From: an uncultured cyanobacterium
Lineage (GTDB): Bacteria; Cyanobacteriota; Cyanobacteriia; Cyanobacteriales; Geitlerinemataceae
Assembly (NCBI GenBank): GCA_937899645.1
Contig: CALCCD010000128.1
Location: forward strand, 21,357-85,356
Reading direction: 5' to 3'
DNA: 64,000 bases
Position 1 is the first letter of the stretch. The number at the start of each line of letters is the position of its first letter. The translations under genes were made by a program, and so were the position numbers. Positions 5,652 through 57,928 of this stretch are shown in pieces. The notes under the pieces are model-generated. The model was not told the DNA's origin, searched no databases, and saw nothing but the letters and a program-made list of their open reading frames with translations.

Positions 5652-6341
5652 GTGAACGCGAAAGCTATCATTCTGCTCTCCGGTGGCCTCGATTCGTCTA
5701 CGGTGCTATATCAGGCCAAGGCCGACGGCTGCGACTGCTACGCGCTGTCGTTCGACTACGGCCAGCGTCACGATCGCGAACTGATTGCCGCGAAGGCGAT
5801 CGCTAAGGCCGGAGGCGCACTCGAACATCGCATTATTTCGTTTGACATGGCGCAGTGGGGCGGCTCGTCGCTGACGGACACCAGCCAGGAATTGCCCCAG
5901 GGTCGCCCGATCGAGGAAATGGGCGAGGAGATCCCGACGACCTACGTTCCGGCGCGCAATACGATTTTTCTCAGCTTTGGGCTGTCCTACGCTGAGGCGA
6001 TCGATGCGGACTGGGTCTACATCGGCGTCAATGCGCTGGACTACTCGGGTTATCCCGACTGCCGCCCGGACTATACGGACGCGATGCAGAACGTTTTTCG
6101 GCTGGGGACGAAGCGCGGTCGCGAGGGCAACCCGACGACGATCCTCAAGCCGCTGATTCACTTGAAGAAGACAGAAATTATCGAGATGGGAAACCGGCTG
6201 GGCGTGCCTTGGGACAAGACTTGGTCGTGTTACGCCGGGGGCGAGGCGGCCTGCGGCAGATGCGACTCGTGTTTGCTGCGGCTGAAGGCGTTTGCCGATC
6301 TCGGTCTCGAAGATCCGCTACCCTACATCACGCGCGGGTAG
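5652..6341 (+). CDS. queC: 7-cyano-7-deazaguanine synthase
   Basis: PP-loop LLSGGLDSST, then YGQRHDRE, and a C-terminal Zn cluster CYAGGEAACGRCDSCLLR. GTG start. Confidence 0.9.
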   Translation: MNAKAIILLSGGLDSSTVLYQAKADGCDCYALSFDYGQRHDRELIAAKAIAKAGGALEHRIISFDMAQWGGSSLTDTSQELPQGRPIEEMGEEIPTTYVPARNTIFLSFGLSYAEAIDADWVYIGVNALDYSGYPDCRPDYTDAMQNVFRLGTKRGREGNPTTILKPLIHLKKTEIIEMGNRLGVPWDKTWSCYAGGEAACGRCDSCLLRLKAFADLGLEDPLPYITRG

Positions 6342-6485
6342 GGGCGTCACGGTAGTGCGCCCGCGAAATTTTTCGATTTCAGCCAAGCAATTCGCGCTTT
6401 CCCAGCCATGTTCGGGCGCATTGCCATGCGCCCCTACGGTTTTTGTCGATTCCCATTGATTTTCGCTGTATCTCTCCGTATTTCT

Positions 6486-7193
6486 ATGTCTGACTTCCCG
6501 TCGTCTCTTGACGTGACCGAATCGCTTTACGATCGCATGGTGGAGTGCGCGCCGGAAGAGTGGCGCGAACAGCTCGCCGACCCGCTGACCTGGGACGACG
6601 CGATGCGCGATCGCGTGGCGGCGCTGCTGATTCCGGCAGCGCGGGACGAAGCAATCGCCCAGGCGGAGGCGCGCGGCGATCGCGGCTTTATTCTCTACGA
6701 CCAAAAGGCGATCGAGACCTACATCTACTACGTCGGTAGCGAGTTTGCTGATACGGTGCTGTGGATGGCTGACGCACCGACGAAAGCTGAGCTGAACGAG
6801 GTGTTGGCGGATTACGATCCGCAGTCGGAAGCGGCGATCGCGATCGCCAGCGCCGAGAGCGTTCAGGTGATGTGGATCAAGCAAGACGGCCAGGTGGCGA
6901 CCCAGGGCGCGCAGGAAGTTAACCCGCTGCCGATCGCCCTACCCGAAGGCGTCACGGCGGAGACCAGCGAGCGCGACGGCTGCTACGGCTACGACTTTAC
7001 TGACGCCAAGCTCGGCAAGCTGGGGCGCATCACGTTCATGCCGCTGGGCAACAACCAGCTCGATTTTCATTGCGAGTTTGCGACGTCTGGCGATGCGGCA
7101 CGCGACGACGAGGCCAAAGCCTACTTCGAGCCGATCGCGCAGCGGGCGATCGCGGCCTGGACGGCGGCACTCCAGCGCAAGGCGGGCAACTAG
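6486..7193 (+). CDS. Hypothetical protein
   Basis: Long ORF with protein-like acidic composition. Start trimmed to the ATG at 6486 (MSDFPSS). No recognisable motif. Confidence 0.55.
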   Translation: MSDFPSSLDVTESLYDRMVECAPEEWREQLADPLTWDDAMRDRVAALLIPAARDEAIAQAEARGDRGFILYDQKAIETYIYYVGSEFADTVLWMADAPTKAELNEVLADYDPQSEAAIAIASAESVQVMWIKQDGQVATQGAQEVNPLPIALPEGVTAETSERDGCYGYDFTDAKLGKLGRITFMPLGNNQLDFHCEFATSGDAARDDEAKAYFEPIAQRAIAAWTAALQRKAGN

Positions 7194-49835: not shown

Positions 49836-50600
49836 ATGGACAGCAGCGCAAACGTTTCGGTCACGCTCGATATCCCGCAGGAAATGTGGGAGAGCTTGCA
49901 GCACATCGCCCGCGAGAAGGGCGAAGACGCTCGTGCGCTGCTGCGGACGTATCTCGATCGCGGTGTGAAGCGCGATCGCGCGGACTCTCCGAAGCGCTAT
50001 CTGCTCGACACGTGCATTTTTAACAAGCTAGTCGAGGGTTCGCTGCACCACTCCGATCTTCCACAAGATGGCCGCTACGTTATTACCCACGCCCAGCTTG
50101 ACGAAATCAACAATACTCCTGACACGTATAAAGAGAAGCGGGCGCGCCTTGTATTATCAGCCCTAAAAGACCTTCAGCTCGATCTCGTTCCAACTTCAGA
50201 TTGTTTAGCTGATTTCAGCCGTGTGGGTATGGCATATGTAAGTGACTCAGATATATTTGATTTGCTGAAAGCTGCGCTAGATAAACGTCGAAAGAAAAGT
50301 AGTAATACAGTTGATGCACTCCTCGCATCCAGTGCGATACAGCAGGGTCTCATACTCATAACAACGGATCGCAACTTGAGCGACGTTGCTCAACAGTATG
50401 GATGTGACGTCGTCTTTCTAGAGAGCAAGGGACTAGCGGCTGAAGAACCGAACGAGACGGTGAATAAATCTCTGCCGTTCTTTGAGGCGATCGCCGGGAT
50501 TGGCGCTTCCGATGAAGGAGATATATCTGAAAATGATGAAGAATTTCTCCGCCGTGAAATTCATCCCATTTATGGCTGGTCAACGAAACCAAATCAATAA
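49836..50600 (+). CDS. Fusion protein: RHH (CopG-like) segment + PIN domain + C-terminal VapB-like tail
   Basis: VSVTLDIPQEMWESLQHIAREKGEDARALLRTYLDRGV shows a ribbon-helix-helix pattern. RYLLDTCIFNKL ... VDALLASSAIQQGLILITTDRNL shows the PIN acidic motifs. The tail FFEAIAGIGASDEGDISENDEEFLRREIHPIYGWS resembles antitoxin C-termini. Confidence 0.65.
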   Translation: MDSSANVSVTLDIPQEMWESLQHIAREKGEDARALLRTYLDRGVKRDRADSPKRYLLDTCIFNKLVEGSLHHSDLPQDGRYVITHAQLDEINNTPDTYKEKRARLVLSALKDLQLDLVPTSDCLADFSRVGMAYVSDSDIFDLLKAALDKRRKKSSNTVDALLASSAIQQGLILITTDRNLSDVAQQYGCDVVFLESKGLAAEEPNETVNKSLPFFEAIAGIGASDEGDISENDEEFLRREIHPIYGWSTKPNQ

Positions 50601-51014
50601 ATGGTTGCCATTCTAGACTCGAGCTTTCTCTTTGCCCTGACCAATGGAAAAGACCGAAGTCACGACATCGTTTTAAAGACAGCACGGGGACTGCAAGGTA
50701 AATCTATTCTGCCCGATGTGGTTTTGCCTGAAGTTTGCCACCTGATTCTCGCGCGGCTCGGCCACTTCACCATGCGCCAATTTCTCCGTAGCCTCGACCC
50801 AGAACACCTTCAGCTAGAACCGCTGCACGCCGAAGATCTCGTGCGCGCTCGGGCATTGCTCGAAACATATGCGAATATTCAGCTCGACCTTGCAGATGCT
50901 GCGATTATCGCGATCGCTGAGCGCTTGAACATCACGCAAATCTGCACCCTCGATCGCCGCGACTTCTCGATCGTCCGTCCCCGACACTGCGAGTACTTCG
51001 AGGTGTTGCCCTGA
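50601..51014 (+). CDS. vapC: PIN-domain toxin VapC
   Basis: MVAILDSSFLFAL (Asp 1), LPEVCHL (Glu), LDLADAAIIAIAERL and CTLDRRDF (Asp 3/4). Its ATG immediately follows the upstream TAA (TAAATG). Confidence 0.8.
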   Translation: MVAILDSSFLFALTNGKDRSHDIVLKTARGLQGKSILPDVVLPEVCHLILARLGHFTMRQFLRSLDPEHLQLEPLHAEDLVRARALLETYANIQLDLADAAIIAIAERLNITQICTLDRRDFSIVRPRHCEYFEVLP

Positions 51015-53004: not shown

Positions 53005-53265
53005 CGCGGTTGCCGAAAGGTCAGGGCCATCTTCCCACGATCGCGATATCCCGAGCGCCTTAGCGACACGCGCGCCAGCCCCAATTCTGGCGAAATTCTT
53101 TAGAGTGCATTAAGCTCACCCGCCGCAGCGGAATGCTAGCGATCCCTGCGCTACGATCGCGGCAAAGGCCAGGTGCGCGTGTTGCGTTTCGTTCGGTGCG
53201 CTCGGCCAGCGGCAGTTAGTGGCAGCTTCCCAACGCCCGCGATCGCCCCACACCCTAAGGCTTTT

Positions 53266-54795
53266 ATGGTTTCACTGGCAGAAAATCCCCTGCGCGTCGG
53301 CCTCCAGCAGGATCGCGTCCCCGACCCGCAAATCTTGATTATTTTCGGTGCGTCCGGTGACTTGACCCAGCGTAAGCTCGTCCCCGCCATCTATCAGATG
53401 CACCTAGAGCGACGCCTCCCGCCGGAAATCACGATCGTGGGCGTGGCGCGGCGCGAATGGAGCCACGACTTCTTCCGCGAACACATGCGCGAGGGCGTTG
53501 AAGAGTTCGGCGGCGGCCTGCAGTCCGAGGAAGTTTGGAACAGCTTCGCGAAGGGACTGTTTTACTGTCCCGGAAATATCGACAATCCCGAGAGCTACCA
53601 AGAGCTAGAAGCGTTCCTCGCCGAGCTGGACAAACAGCGGGGCACGCGTGGCAACCGCGTCTTCTATCTTTCCGTTGCGCCGCGCTTCTTCGCCGAGGCG
53701 ACCCAGCAGCTCGGCAAGGCCGGAATGCTCGACGACCCGAACAAGCAACGACTGGCGATCGAGAAACCCTTCGGTCGCGACCTCGCCACCGCCCAGGAAC
53801 TCAACCGCGTCGTTCAGAATGTCTGCGACGAGCGCCAGATCTACCGAATCGACCACTACCTCGGCAAAGAAACCGTCCAGAACCTGCTGGTTTTCCGGTT
53901 CGCTAACGCCATTTTCGAGCCGCTCTGGAACCGGCAGTACGTCGATCACGTGCAGATCACCGTCGCCGAAAAAGTCGGCCTAGAGGGGCGCGCTGGATAT
54001 TACGAAACGGCGGGCGCGCTGCGAGATATGGTGCAAAACCACCTGATGCAGCTCTTTTGTCTGACGGCGATGGAGCCGCCGAACTCCCTTGATGCCGACA
54101 GCATTCGCGGCGAAAAGGTGAAAGTCCTTCAGGCGACGAGTCTGGCCGACGCAGACAACATCGATCGCTCCGCCGTACGCGGCCAGTACACCAGCGGCTG
54201 GATGGGCGGCAAAACCGTCCCCGGCTACCGCGACGAAGAGGGAGCCAGCCCTGGCACGACGACACCAACCTACGCAGCCATCAAGCTGCATATCGATAAC
54301 TGGCGCTGGAAAGGCGTGCCATTCTACCTGCGGACGGGCAAGCGCATGCCCAAAAAAGTGTCTGAAATCGCAATCCAGTTCAAGGATGTGCCGTTTTTGA
54401 TGTTCCCGTCGGCGGCGAAGCAGGCGAACCCGAACGTTTTGGCGATGCGAATCCAGCCGAATGAGGGCATCGGGATGCGCTTCGAGGTGAAGACGCCGGG
54501 GAGTTCGCTACGAACGCGATCGGTGGAGATGGACTTCCGCTACGATGCAGCGTTCGGAAAGGCGAATACGGATGCCTACAGTCGCCTGCTGATCGACTGC
54601 ATGTTGGGGGATCAGACGCTATTTACGCGGGGCGATGAGGCGGAGTCGTCGTGGCGAATCCTGACGCCGCTGTTGCAGGTGTGGGATGCGCCCGCGCCGC
54701 CGGAGTCAATCCCGCTGTATGAGGCGGGAACGTGGGAGCCGGTGGAGGCGGAGTTGTTGATGAATCGCGATGGTCGCCGTTGGCGTCGGTTGTGA
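53266..54795 (+). CDS. zwf: Glucose-6-phosphate 1-dehydrogenase
   Basis: [17 protein letters not shown] motif and the active-site RIDHYLGKE. Start trimmed to the ATG at 53266, giving 509 aa. Confidence 0.9.
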
Positions 54796-54806
54796 TTCGG
54801 TCTATT

Positions 54807-54966
54807 CGGTAGGGTGTGTTATTGCAGCGGCGATCTTTGGGTTCTACGAACAATTGATACAGGCAATAACGCACCGCCGGATGTGGTACGAGATCGCGGT
54901 GCGTTACGGCGAAATTCAAGGTATCGCGATCGGGTCAATCCTTTCGCCGCCGAACACACCCTACCG
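54807..54966. repeat. 160-nt nested inverted-repeat element
   Basis: 14-bp perfect outer stem 54807-54820/54953-54966. Inner stems: 54818-25/54863-70 (8 bp, extendable to 12 with one G-T), 54868-77/54896-905 (10 bp), 54907-14/54942-49 (8 bp). Confidence 0.6.
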
Positions 54967-55011
54967 CTGCACCACATTTTTTAGAGACCACAGAAGATAG
55001 GTTTTTCTTAA

Positions 55012-55575
55012 ATGAACGCTAGCAATATTCAGGATGCAAACTATACCCAGATGGTATCCTTCATCGAGCGAAATAACTTCACGTTCCAGGAGAAAGAGGA
55101 AAATGGAGCGAAGCGAATTGACGTTCAAAGTGGCAAGAATAAATGTTGTATCAAGGTTTATTCAACTGGAACTATTCAAGTTCAAGGATCTAATTCGCGA
55201 CTAAAAGAAATTCTGGAACAGGCTAAGACCGCGATTGAAAATGAAGAAGCTCTTGATGAAATCCTCCCGTTTGAAATAGAAAGATTTCCGAATGTCTTAC
55301 GAGAGACAATTGCAGATATCGATCTTGTGATCGTGAGATTCATAGAGGAAGCAATCTTAAGCTACAAGGCGAAATCTTTACTTGGATGTGCTTTCTTGCT
55401 CGGCAGTGCATCAGAGAAAGCCATCCTGCTCTTGATTGAAACATACGGAAATGCGATTGATGACGATAAGAATAGAACAAAATTCCAGAATCGAATCAAA
55501 GGGAAGTTTATTAGCAAAGCTTTTGATGAATTCAAAATCTCCTTTAAGAGCTCAAAAAATAAACCTGATGGATAA
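55012..55575 (+). CDS. TBP-like (RNase HIII N-terminal-like) domain plus the first half of a HEPN-like helical domain
   Basis: KCCIKVYSTGTIQVQGSNS resembles B. subtilis RNase HIII N-domain CTITAYQSGKVLFQGKNA (recalled from memory). The helical region IEEAILSYKAKSLLGCAFLLGSASEKAILLLIE follows. AT-rich codons. Confidence 0.55.
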   Translation: MNASNIQDANYTQMVSFIERNNFTFQEKEENGAKRIDVQSGKNKCCIKVYSTGTIQVQGSNSRLKEILEQAKTAIENEEALDEILPFEIERFPNVLRETIADIDLVIVRFIEEAILSYKAKSLLGCAFLLGSASEKAILLLIETYGNAIDDDKNRTKFQNRIKGKFISKAFDEFKISFKSSKNKPDG

Positions 55576-55780
55576 AAATTCATGGAGCCACGATCTGGAG
55601 ATCAAGATAGAGAGTATTTTTCAGTTCTGTCGCATTTGTCGGAATGAGGTTGGGCATCCTCAACTCCCGCCAAATTTAGACAAAGGGGTGCTCCTCTCCA
55701 ATATGGGACAGTTTGTTAAGTACACAGAAGATTTATACGAGCTGATTCATTACTACCAAAATAATAACGTTGAGTTGTAG
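55568..55780 (+). CDS. C-terminal half of the HEPN-like domain (RNxxxH); overlaps the upstream ORF by 8 nt in the +1 frame
   Basis: ESIFQFCRICRNEVGHPQLP contains the R-N-x3-H HEPN signature. Removing one A from the A6 tract at 55554-55559 joins it in frame to 55012-55575. Confidence 0.45.
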   Translation: MDKNSWSHDLEIKIESIFQFCRICRNEVGHPQLPPNLDKGVLLSNMGQFVKYTEDLYELIHYYQNNNVEL

Positions 55781-55788
55781 ATTTTTTC

Positions 55789-55903
55789 TCGTTCCCACGC
55801 TCCGCGTGGTACACGCAATCTCCAGACGCTCTGCGTCGCAACTTTCTCCACACACGGGACGCAGAGCGTCCGAATGGCATTCCCACGCAGAGCGTAGGAA
55901 CGA
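55789..55903. repeat. Palindromic mini-element (MITE-like cluster of short inverted repeats)
   Basis: CGTTCCCACGC (55790-55800) pairs with GCGTAGGAACG (55892-55902, one mismatch). Internal palindromes CCACGC..GCGTGG, GACGC..GCGTC and GGACGC..GCGTCC. Confidence 0.6.
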
Positions 55904-55937
55904 TAGGTAAAACCGATTTACTCCAGCGGGGGCGATC

Positions 55938-56564
55938 GTGACAGCATCAACCATTGCAGCCAACCAAGTCGAACTGAGCGATCTCATCGATCGCCTCGAC
56001 CTCACACGTATCAACGATCTCGACTTTTTCTCTGAGTGGCAAACCGACTTGCCCACTCTCGCCGACCTCGATCGCCAACTCCTCGATCGCGTCCGTGACG
56101 GTTACTTCAATCTCATCGAGTACCCGCCCCTACGAGAAGATGCGATACGGATGGCAATTCTCGATCCGATTCTTTTCATCGCTGGACTCTATCTTCCGCC
56201 CTTTCACATTCGATCGGAAGCGCCGATTTCTCTAGAAATCCCAGATGAAGATCGGTCAATTTCCGGACGCATTGACACCCTAATCTTTCGCGAACACCTG
56301 TGGGTCATGGTCATTGAAGCAAAGCGAGCATCATTGTCGATCGAAGCAGGTTTGGCGCAATTACTAACGTATTTGCTCGCCGCTCCGAATCCAACCAACT
56401 ACGGCTTAATCACATCCGGCGGTGAATTTATTTTTGTGAAATTAGAGCAAGGTACTCGCCCCAAATATGCCACCTCCGACATGTTTGTTATGCGAAATCG
56501 CCGACGCAACGAACTTTATGAGGTACTGCAAATCTTGAAAAAACTTGCCGACCTAACGACCTAG
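55938..56564 (+). CDS. PD-(D/E)xK nuclease-fold protein (type I restriction HsdR N-terminal-like domain)
   Basis: REDAIRMAILDPILFIAGL ... GRIDTLIFREHLWVMVIEAKR gives a D ... E-x-K arrangement typical of the HSDR_N family. GTG start. AT-richer than the flanks. Confidence 0.7.
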   Translation: MTASTIAANQVELSDLIDRLDLTRINDLDFFSEWQTDLPTLADLDRQLLDRVRDGYFNLIEYPPLREDAIRMAILDPILFIAGLYLPPFHIRSEAPISLEIPDEDRSISGRIDTLIFREHLWVMVIEAKRASLSIEAGLAQLLTYLLAAPNPTNYGLITSGGEFIFVKLEQGTRPKYATSDMFVMRNRRRNELYEVLQILKKLADLTT

Positions 56565-56599
56565 CCCTAACCAAGCGCAGACTCAACCGAGAACCAATC

Positions 56600-57928
56600 A
56601 TGAGCACTCCTCTCGTCGCCCTCCAAAAACCCATCGATATTTCCCTCCAGGAAATCGAAACCGAGCTGGGTAAAATCTGGCTCGGCCAGTCCATCAGCCA
56701 GGGCTCTCCGATCGCCAGCCGCGCCACGACCTTCACGATGGTGATCTACGAGCCCGAAGAATTCCAGCAGCTCCTCGGCGGGCTGGGGTTCTACGATGGC
56801 CCGATCGATGGCATCCACGGCCCCAAGACCCGCAGCGCGATCGAGTCCGCGCAGAAAAGCTACGGTCTCGCCACGACCGGGCGCGTCGATAACGACACCC
56901 TGGCGCGGCTGCGCGAAGAGTTCGCCAAGCAGCCTGGAGATCGCCAGATTGTTGAAAACCTCAACGCGCGTGGCTACAGCCTCAGCGATGCGATCGCCGA
57001 TCGCAACCCGTCGCGGATTATTACGTTGTGTCCGACCCTTGGTGAAGACACTGGCGTGACGGCGCAGGTCTCAGCCTACTGTCCCGTCCAGAAGAAAAGC
57101 GACCGGCTCACCTGCTGCGAATACATCACGCTCCGGGGTACGAAAGCGGCACTCGATCGTGTCGGCTCTGTGGTCACGTCGCTGCTGCTGCCGAACCTGC
57201 CGACCTTTTTGTGGTGGAAAGCGACGCCCAATCCCGAGCAGGCGCTATTCCAAACCCTGAGCGAGGTATGTAGCTGCGTAATCGTCGATTCGGGCTACTT
57301 CAGCGACCCCGATCGCGAGCTGCTGAAGATGCAGGAGTCGATCGAGAAAGAGATCTATGTTGCCGACCTGAACTGGCACCGCCTCGCCGCGTGGCAGGAG
57401 CTGGCGGCTGCGGCCTACGATCCGCCGGAGCGCCGCCAGTCCCTGTGCGAACTCGATCGCATCACGATCGACTACGAAAAGGGCAACGACTCCCAGGCAC
57501 TGATGTTCCTGGGCTGGATTGCCAGTCGCCTGGGCTGGGAACCTAAATCCTATAGCTTCGAGGGCGGCGACTACGATATCAAGCACGTGCGCCTGACCTC
57601 ACCCAACGGCAAGGAGATCGAAGCCGAGCTGGCCGGCATCCCCGTGGCAGACATGGGCGAAATCCCCGGAGACCTGGTGGGGCTGCGCCTCGACTCGCAG
57701 AATCCGAATGCCGATTGCTGCACGATTTTGTGTTCGGAGACGACGGGCTGCATGCGGATGGAGTCGGGCGGCAGCGCCCAGTCTTGCCGTACGGAGCAGG
57801 TGACGACGCTGTCGGATCAGAAAGCGGAACTGCTGATGGCGCAACAGCTCCAGCGCTGGGGTCGCGACGTGCTCTACGAGGAAAGTCTGGCGCTGACGGC
57901 GCAGGTTTTGCAGTTGCCGCAGTCGTAG
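56600..57928 (+). CDS. opcA: Glucose-6-phosphate dehydrogenase assembly protein OpcA
   Basis: N-terminal pattern LQEIETELGKIW...ATTFTMVIYEPEE and the C-terminal OpcA region. Contains the LGFYDGPIDGIHGPKT putative peptidoglycan-binding-like insert that I recall in cyanobacterial OpcA. Confidence 0.9.
   Translation: MSTPLVALQKPIDISLQEIETELGKIWLGQSISQGSPIASRATTFTMVIYEPEEFQQLLGGLGFYDGPIDGIHGPKTRSAIESAQKSYGLATTGRVDNDTLARLREEFAKQPGDRQIVENLNARGYSLSDAIADRNPSRIITLCPTLGEDTGVTAQVSAYCPVQKKSDRLTCCEYITLRGTKAALDRVGSVVTSLLLPNLPTFLWWKATPNPEQALFQTLSEVCSCVIVDSGYFSDPDRELLKMQESIEKEIYVADLNWHRLAAWQELAAAAYDPPERRQSLCELDRITIDYEKGNDSQALMFLGWIASRLGWEPKSYSFEGGDYDIKHVRLTSPNGKEIEAELAGIPVADMGEIPGDLVGLRLDSQNPNADCCTILCSETTGCMRMESGGSAQSCRTEQVTTLSDQKAELLMAQQLQRWGRDVLYEESLALTAQVLQLPQS

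Follow-up and report, generated by a model that had tools for sequence, protein, structure and literature searches.

The genes zwf and opcA encode glucose-6-phosphate dehydrogenase (G6PDH) and its activator, and in cyanobacteria they are usually treated as an inseparable operon. We have studied a locus at which the two genes are separated by a 1.8-kb spacer, in a 64,000-nucleotide stretch of DNA from an uncultured cyanobacterium of the Geitlerinemataceae (contig CALCCD010000128.1); the whole of this stretch is termed the window. An earlier reading, made without database searches (the sequence-only reading), had described the spacer as an AT-rich islet of foreign DNA with nuclease or RNase-type cargo. 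We find a gene-bearing islet at this site in all five assemblies of the window's clade, a small group of filamentous cyanobacteria, with fixed outer parts and a cargo that differs from genome to genome. In our view it is probably the local version of a horizontally acquired, long-lived, lineage-specific, recombining islet of defense or toxin type, lying inside the zwf-opcA operon.

The spacer and its components

The islet is bounded on its 5′ side by zwf (53263-54795, plus strand, 509 aa), which matches Pfam G6PD_N (E = 6e-65) and G6PD_C (E = 6e-127), and on its 3′ side by opcA (56600-57928, plus strand, 442 aa), which matches OpcA_G6PD_assem (E = 3e-36) and OpcA_G6PD_C (E = 2e-37). The listing of open reading frames (ORFs) and the Pfam matches place the end of zwf and the start of opcA exactly where the sequence-only reading had put them. 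The true start of zwf is the ATG at 53263 and not the GTG at 53173; the homologues in three relatives (L001, L002 and L091) use the equivalent ATG, and NCBI calls a protein of 509 aa. The 30 extra codons of the mechanical ORF (53173-53262) are probably untranslated. Read from zwf toward opcA, the spacer holds element A (a nested inverted repeat, 54804-54966), two plus-strand ORFs that together make up a frameshifted gene (orf1, 55012-55575, and orf2, 55568-55780, in the +1 frame), a two-tier palindrome (element B, 55786-55906) and a third plus-strand ORF (orf3, 55938-56564). Elements A and B, defined by their arms and RNA folds, have no strand assigned. The sequence also confirms the 35 nt (56565-56599) said to separate the orf3 stop codon from the ATG of opcA.

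The 1804-bp spacer has a GC content of 0.458, against a mean of 0.611 (standard deviation 0.037) for segments of the same size in the 64 kb. It is the global minimum of the window, with 0.05% of 1804-bp segments equally low, and the claim that the spacer is AT-richer than its surroundings is thus upheld. The composition of the islet is not uniform. The split gene has a GC content of 0.39, a third-codon-position GC (GC3) of 0.39-0.51 and no copy of CGATCG, the core of the HIP1 site, which is here more informative than the full site. orf3 has a GC content of 0.50, a GC3 of 0.53 and five copies of CGATCG, which makes it denser in this core than the window as a whole. The GC3 values of zwf and opcA are 0.77 and 0.80. 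The spacer had also been said to stand out from both flanks in lacking the full HIP1 site, GCGATCGC. The site is indeed absent, but the contrast fails on the zwf side. The gap without HIP1 covers 3751 bp (53239-56990), more than any other in the window, and takes in the entire native, high-GC zwf gene. Sites occur on average once per 610 bp of the window, and at this rate the probability of finding none in 1.8 kb is ~0.05. The argument from HIP1 is therefore weak, and its local absence is not in itself a mark of foreign DNA.

orf1 (187 aa) and orf2 (70 aa) had been taken for the halves of a split gene with TBP-like and HEPN-like parts, and this proves correct. Fused in silico they gave 224 protein matches, the best of which are single ORFs of ~252 aa that align with 97-100% of the query at 62-72% identity; the two fragments together match the 252-aa homologues over 99% of the length. 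Three-frame translation and alignment with the homologues place the frameshift at about 55566-55580, following ...SSKNKP, at CCTGATGGATAAAAATTC, which includes a run of five A nucleotides. The same frameshift is present in the NCBI contig, which derives from a metagenome-assembled genome (MAG), and in an independent Logan assembly. We reject programmed frameshifting, since nearly every other member of the family is a single ORF of ~250 aa. The TBP-like α-β4-α domain and the first HEPN helices are encoded by orf1, and the invariant block FQFCRICRNExGHP, which holds the Rx4H motif of HEPN proteins, now lies on orf2, where it includes RNEVGH. With 19 homologues aligned (20 family members), R211, N212, E213, G215 and H216 are invariant, giving the Rx4-6H catalytic motif of the HEPN superfamily. 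Because the gene is frameshifted the HEPN protein of the window is probably inactive, and since all of the family-invariant residues are kept and there is a single frameshift it is probably a recent pseudogene.

The fold of the family was examined in an AlphaFold model of a homologue 72% identical to the window protein (predicted local distance difference test score, pLDDT, 84). The model has an N-terminal α-β4-α domain and a C-terminal helical domain, residues 91-251 forming helices only, as in the all-helical bundle of HEPN proteins. The best Foldseek match in the PDB is E. coli RnlA (6y2r; E = 0.039, probability 0.89, template modeling (TM) score 0.28), and there is none with E ≤ 0.001. A profile search of PDB sequences with the family gave nothing. 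The Pfam model RnlA_toxin scores 16.9 bits against orf1 (E = 0.0075), below its cut-off of 27, and the best matches of the family neither contain a Pfam domain nor carry an informative name. We conclude that the family can be treated, as a working assignment, as putative RNases with a TBP-like and an HEPN domain; its membership of the RnlA family is not demonstrable.

The 252-aa family is highly mobile and widely distributed. It occurs in Nostoc, Planktothrix, Halomonas, other Pseudomonadota, Cytophagales, Syntrophales, Thioglobus and Candidatus Methanoperedens, and so in several bacterial phyla including Bacteroidota, plus one archaeon, at 62-72% identity. Its genes have GC contents of 0.35-0.48 regardless of the GC content of the host. 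A tblastn search of plasmids gave no match, and viral contigs contained one relative only (44%). In two skin-metagenome contigs (L084 and L085) the gene is the first cassette beside a divergent 326-aa IntI-like protein with a Phage_integrase match, and in L081, L083 and L086 the same cassette, its 5′ end and attC site (GGCATAAC...GCGTTAG) identical, belongs to other arrays. The family is thus a true integron cassette in Pseudomonadota. The cassette loci include L084 1-8005, L081 5100-12759 and L086 900-3800, and L085 as well. The family is also found in defense islands, and in L095 the neighbors of the gene are GmrSD, PLD and MZB genes. In Planktothrix and Nostoc the gene is followed, 5-66 nt on, by a gene for a protein of ~212 aa with Cauli_VI and RNase_H domains (L087-L090, 6001-7464; L097, 5001-6406; L098, 3812-5217), and the wider neighborhoods differ. 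This pair may be a two-gene module, or may mark a shared insertion site.

The third ORF had been read as a PD-(D/E)xK gene, and the profile matches and conserved residues of its 208-aa product agree. PADLOC gives PD_DExK at 6.5e-7 and Cas4 at 2.4e-5. The Pfam matches are all sub-threshold: HSDR_N_2 at 23.6 bits against 25 (E = 5.7e-5), HSDR_N at 21.9 against 25.1 (E = 1.8e-4) and PDDEXK_1 at 16.8 against 22 (E = 6.6e-3). Among 21-23 family members D113 is nearly invariant and E127-x-K129 is invariant, and these residues fall on predicted strands (106-117 and 121-128) of a predicted α-β-β-β-α-β core. Foldseek found no PDB match to the orf3 model with E ≤ 0.001, only non-significant matches to ribosomal proteins. 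Some sequence records give orf3 the name 'restriction endonuclease subunit R'. A full type I HsdR can be rejected, as the protein has 208 aa, corresponds to the N-terminal nuclease region of HsdR only and has no superfamily 2 (SF2) helicase match. No methylase (hsdM) or specificity (hsdS) gene is present in the islet. The family is widespread in cyanobacteria, with 50-58% identity in Nostoc, Calothrix, Okeania and Trichodesmium, where it is usually solitary and in unrelated contexts, such as beside Uma2 genes or after DNA ligase. We conclude that orf3 did not enter from beyond the phylum; it is predicted to be an accessory, stand-alone nuclease of cyanobacterial type, and it forms the 3′ anchor of the islet.

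The two palindromic structures had been noticed as a nested inverted repeat of ~160 nt and a palindromic mini-element, and both are real. Element A, at the 3′ end of zwf, is built from units of ~18 nt (GGTAGGGTGTGTTATTGC and its complement) in alternating orientation, and has perfect 14-nt outer arms plus inner arms. Its calculated RNA fold has ΔG = −77.7 kcal/mol (z = −4.7 against shuffled controls). Element B has outer arms TCGTTCCCACGCTCCGCGTGG and CCACGCAGAGCGTAGGAACGA and inner arms GACGCTCTGCGTC and GACGCAGAGCGTC, with ΔG = −63.2 kcal/mol (z = −7.3 against shuffled controls). An Rfam scan of 54500-56800 (E ≤ 1) gave only a meaningless match of the B hairpin to a miRNA precursor, and a literature search for the sequence of element B found no published name, only unrelated primers.

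The right arm of element B matched at least 119 stretches in one metagenome scan. We fetched 80 of these loci (L099-L178); they have a GC content of about 0.60, show no HIP1 enrichment and often carry several copies per contig. Within them are full-length B-like elements, 73-79% identical and collinear over about 117 nt, and two B-bearing loci encode proteins identical to those of Pseudomonas zeae or the fluorescens group. Element B thus appears from these matches to belong to a multi-copy palindromic repeat family abundant in Pseudomonas, and B itself would then be of a type foreign to cyanobacteria. The likeness amounts to a cross-phylum sharing of a non-coding repeat, between fluorescent Pseudomonas and cyanobacterial islets. 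The arms of B are invariant in sequence, its loops are variable and covariation is absent, as expected for a repeat of the REP (repetitive extragenic palindromic) or REPIN (REP doublet forming a hairpin) type that is recognized by a protein.

The same site in related cyanobacteria

A genome scan with OpcA allowed the locus to be compared across the phylum, the best 80 of 353 opcA loci being looked at; across residues 1-439, the OpcA homologues of these 80 genomes show 69-88% identity. For 62 other cyanobacterial species whose zwf and opcA share a contig, the spacer between the two genes measures 47-725 bp (median 154). These spacers are gene-free, with a longest ORF of 82 aa, and the direct adjacency of the two genes that the sequence-only reading gave for other cyanobacteria is seen in them all. 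A gene-bearing, AT-rich islet between zwf and opcA is found in five of five Geitlerinemataceae assemblies of the window's clade, and only there. Besides the window, these are the closest relatives L001, L002 and L003 (Geitlerinema-type MAGs, with OpcA 86-88% identical to that of the window) and a fourth relative, L091, reached through a protein search with orf3. The islet measures 1.8 kb in the window, 2.2 kb in L091, 4.3 kb in L001, 3.0 kb in L002 and 2.4 kb in L003. Its GC content is 0.42-0.46 in the five genomes (0.42-0.44 in the relatives), with flanking genes at 0.57-0.63. The pattern rests on these five genomes, all of them MAGs or metagenome contigs, scanned as loci rather than as complete genomes.

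The comparison shows an ancestral state in which, to judge from the 62 species, zwf directly adjoined opcA, the islet being a derived feature restricted to this clade. The spacers of the distant relatives are too diverged for an alignment to place the exact insertion point. The proposal of the sequence-only reading that foreign DNA has inserted into the operon stands as regards insertion, but not as a single recent event. The site is old, and has persisted across species that share only about 81-88% identity in their zwf and opcA DNA. The empty site that the same reading suggested looking for in close relatives is seen in the distant ones; the five members of the clade all share the islet, but it is AT-rich and its cargo is variable.

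Three features are constant in the clade, namely the two palindromic elements (A, which follows zwf, and B) and a PD-(D/E)xK gene that ends 35-55 nt before opcA. In each of the five genomes it is orf3 or its homologue that immediately precedes opcA, with identities to the window protein of 87% in L091, 76% in L001 and L002, and 39% in L003. The final ~14 nt before and into opcA, GAGAACCAATCATG (which includes the opcA ATG), are common to the window and L091. When the L003 gene (1850-2488) is compared with that of the window (55938-56564), the DNA similarity is confined to the last ~55 nt plus the spacer to opcA. This restriction to the end of the gene suggests replacement of the allele, with a crossover at the 3′ end.

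The cargo between the fixed parts is different in every case, so that five genomes have five cargo sets, as in a hot spot. The window has the split gene of HEPN type. In L091 and L003 there is a protein of 408-443 aa homologous to a 400-aa protein of L001, which matches PADLOC JukB at 7e-9, the match covering the N-terminal half only. The cargo of L001 further includes an ORF of 111 aa on the minus strand, a PIN-like gene that is truncated, and genes for two proteins of 161 and 250 aa, the larger of which matches PADLOC JukA at 1e-19 over nearly its full length. In L002 the cargo comprises ORFs of 114 and 103 aa, the 161-aa protein that is also present in L001, and a PIN_12-like protein that is intact and has 212 aa. 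Of the nine distinct cargo families, eight are on the strand of the operon. The suggestion of nuclease or toxin-defense cargo is thus borne out by the HEPN Rx4H motif in the window and by the JukA, JukB and PIN-like matches in the relatives. Scans of all cargo proteins against NCBIfam and PHROGs gave nothing meaningful. The JukB-like and JukA-like genes lie at 5816-7018 and 8513-9265 in L001, and JukB-like genes at 6576-7907 in L091 and 472-1698 in L003. It is possible that these are Juk-type systems in cyanobacteria.

The palindromes are a property of the islets. Copies of element A, expanded or split, occur in the islets of L001, L002, L003 and L091 only, and element B is present, whole or half, in all five islets. 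All 31 matches to the A and B core motifs fall inside the 13.8 kb of islet DNA (window, L091 and L001-L003), with none in about 107 kb of flanking DNA of the clade. Neither the rest of the 64-kb window nor the 80 opcA loci contain further copies outside the clade's islets. Collinearity between the window and L091 stops at 54881, inside A, and returns at 55843, the center of B. In L002 the right half of A is immediately upstream of orf3, the whole cargo being thus inside A; in L001 the left half of B stands by itself, joined to an A-like fragment, and L091 has the right half of B only. These alignments show homology between genomes breaking inside A and B, which would accordingly mark the boundaries of modules.

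Origin and working of the islet

The explanation we favor, and think probable while allowing real room for others, is that the spacer is a long-lived islet of defense or toxin type that recombines within this lineage. Its frame would be fixed, with element A after zwf, followed by element B, and the PD-(D/E)xK gene before opcA, and the cargo between would be exchangeable. Cargo would be swapped by recombination, for which the conserved flanks (zwf and orf3/opcA) and the palindromes A and B could provide regions of homology or break points, and the incoming genes would probably come from uptake of the DNA of relatives. The cargo genes would be stand-alone toxins or anti-phage effectors (an HEPN RNase, Juk-like and PIN-like proteins), and orf3 a stand-alone DNA nuclease of Mrr/HsdR-N type. 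The zwf promoter would drive the cargo, with opcA still reached by read-through, and the hairpins of A and B might modulate the stability of the transcript.

In 54600-56700, where 2.4 promoter-like and 2.2 terminator-like sites would be expected, a crude scan found neither. As the cargo is co-oriented and has no recognizable promoter or terminator, its transcription probably starts at the zwf promoter. Read-through to opcA is plausible, since the co-oriented cargo, the lack of such sites and the short, fixed distance between orf3 and opcA are all consistent with it.

Several points weigh against this explanation. The promoter scan used a crude sigma-70 consensus, poorly suited to cyanobacteria. 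The assignments to defense rest on weak or partial profile matches; the best PADLOC match of the window HEPN protein is PDC-S35 (3e-4, N-terminus only), with Csx1 at E = 0.0047. The JukA-like and JukB-like genes of L001 are not adjacent, and the JukB-like gene occurs alone in L091 and L003. Because its family is widespread, solitary and found in unrelated contexts, orf3 may not be a defense gene at all. The breakpoints in the palindromes could be a by-product of the limits of alignment in short repeats.

A different possibility is that orf3 and the islet frame are a native partner of the oxidative pentose phosphate pathway in an expanded operon, orf3 being, for example, a regulator of opcA or an RNA-processing factor. 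Its presence in all five genomes at a fixed 35-55 nt from opcA, the cyanobacteria-wide distribution of its family and its richness in the CGATCG core, unlike the HEPN gene, would all fit. However, the family is elsewhere found next to Uma2 genes or after DNA ligase, and orf3 is absent from the zwf-opcA spacer of the 62 species. Its GC content (0.46-0.50) and GC3 (0.53) are far below the GC3 of 0.77-0.80 of zwf and opcA, and it evolves faster than OpcA (76% identity to L001, compared with 88% for OpcA). Its place in L003 has been taken by an allele of 39% identity that keeps only the last ~55 nt, behavior that is typical of accessory nuclease genes. We regard a native partner as unlikely.

We find it similarly hard to credit that the islet is a cassette-exchange platform, either independent of an integrase or dependent on a recombinase acting in trans, in which promoterless toxin or defense modules are inserted and swapped at the centers of the palindromes and expressed from the promoter of a housekeeping operon. 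If true, this would provide a cyanobacterial functional analogue of the integron, built on a REPIN-type element shared with Pseudomonas, and at least one captured gene would circulate as an integron cassette across bacteria and archaea.

The islet might also be a degenerate array of integron cassettes, or CALIN (cluster of attC sites lacking an integrase), in which A and B would be attC-like, the integrase would be encoded elsewhere and the zwf promoter would act as the cassette promoter (Pc). We tested this and it was not supported; we judge it quite improbable. The idea draws on the finding that the HEPN family is a genuine cassette in Pseudomonadota, where it is accompanied by an IntI-like integrase, same-strand arrays and attC sites with ...TAAC/GTTA... 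cores, and on the form of the islet, with co-oriented cargo flanked by structured palindromes of 120-160 nt and breakpoints inside them. However, A and B do not have the R″(RYYYAAC)...R′(GTTRRRY) polarity of attC sites, that of B being reversed (GTTCCCA...TAGGAAC). A home-made, structure-aware attC scan that recovered most of the L081 and L084 sites found none at the intergenic positions of the window islet. A tblastn search of the window, L001-L003 and L091 with the IntI-like protein of L084 detected no IntI-like ORF, with nothing below E = 0.49. The DNA similarity between the window HEPN gene and the cassette copies ends at the coding region, and there is therefore no cassette boundary in common. 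Lastly, element B is a dispersed repeat in Pseudomonas and is not associated with cassettes there.

That the arrangement is an artefact of assembly or binning is scarcely credible: the window DNA is MAG-derived (GCA_050043505.1) and low-GC inserts in metagenome assemblies can be chimeric, but the order zwf-islet-orf3-opcA recurs in five independent assemblies from different projects, and the Logan assembly of SRR3401482 matches 1904 bp at 100% identity, from the end of zwf through element A and both HEPN fragments to element B.

Relation to known systems

Defense islands and integration hot spots between core genes have been described in the pan-genomes of E. coli and Pseudomonas aeruginosa, and a defense or accessory hot spot of this sort is the closest known kind. 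Like these, the zwf-opcA islet occupies a fixed site between core genes, carries cargo that differs from genome to genome, has a deviant base composition and needs no mobility gene inside it. Unlike them, it lies within a two-gene metabolic operon and not between independent transcription units; it is also tiny (1.8-4.3 kb), its cargo is almost all co-oriented, and its modules are bounded by two islet-specific palindromes.

The components can be compared in the same way. The HEPN family resembles RnlA and LsoA, type II toxins (RNase LS) with TBP-like N-terminal domains and a C-terminal HEPN domain, in having an α-β4-α domain and a helical domain with Rx4H, and in that RnlA is its top fold match in the PDB, though all scores are below family thresholds. 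It differs in size and architecture, with 252 aa, one TBP-like and one helical domain, compared with about 357 aa comprising an N-terminal domain (NTD), an N-repeated domain (NRD) and a Dmd-binding domain (DBD); it has no match to the RnlA DBD profile, and the window copy is frameshifted. No gene for an RnlB/Dmd-like antitoxin was found beside members of the family, nor any conserved small neighbor, in the contexts L081-L098.

The cargo of the window is like that of integrons and CALINs in being co-oriented and seemingly promoterless, and the same HEPN family is a cassette elsewhere; the islet is unlike them in its lack of an attC signature, IntI and a shared cassette boundary. Element B is similar to REP, REPIN and BIME (bacterial interspersed mosaic element) sequences in its two inverted, invariant arms of ~21 nt, its inner hairpin and its many copies in Pseudomonas, and element A is similar to a BIME in being a cluster of inverted units, alternating in orientation, where a gene ends. 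In contrast to REP and REPIN sequences, A and B are found in the cyanobacterial clade only within the islet.

Juk is an anti-jumbo-phage system, and jukA is reported to adjoin varied effectors that include PD-(D/E)xK nucleases (Li et al., bioRxiv 10.1101/2022.09.17.508391). The cargo of the sister islets matches both JukA and JukB. Unlike Juk, the window has neither gene, the L001 pair is 1.5 kb apart with other cargo between, and L091 and L003 have a lone JukB-like gene.

The conclusion that emerges is that the islet is real and, its unusual position apart, a fairly ordinary hot spot for accessory genes; current concepts are unchanged by it. To the known categories it adds two uncharacterized parts, the HEPN family and the two-tier repeat, and one unusual location. 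The zwf-opcA pair can evidently host a small, recombining accessory-gene hot spot over a long evolutionary time, which raises the question of how the expression of opcA stays coupled to that of zwf across variable cargo. The 252-aa TBP-like plus HEPN family, uncharacterized, extremely conserved and with no Pfam model, moves between phyla and domains as an integron cassette, which makes it a promising candidate RNase toxin or defense effector of the stand-alone kind.

Two further observations concern the surroundings of the islet. A second patch of low GC content (0.45-0.48) lies at 49836-51014, 2.2 kb upstream of zwf. It contains two abutting plus-strand ORFs of 254 and 137 aa, the latter PIN/VapC-like by eye, and is probably another small islet of toxin-antitoxin type. 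The OpcA proteins of the window and L091 contain a PG_binding_1 domain (peptidoglycan-binding-like; E = 2e-15) at residues 53-104 (window 56756-56911), N-terminal to both OpcA domains. Since all 80 relatives align from residue 1, this domain appears to be conserved in the OpcA group.

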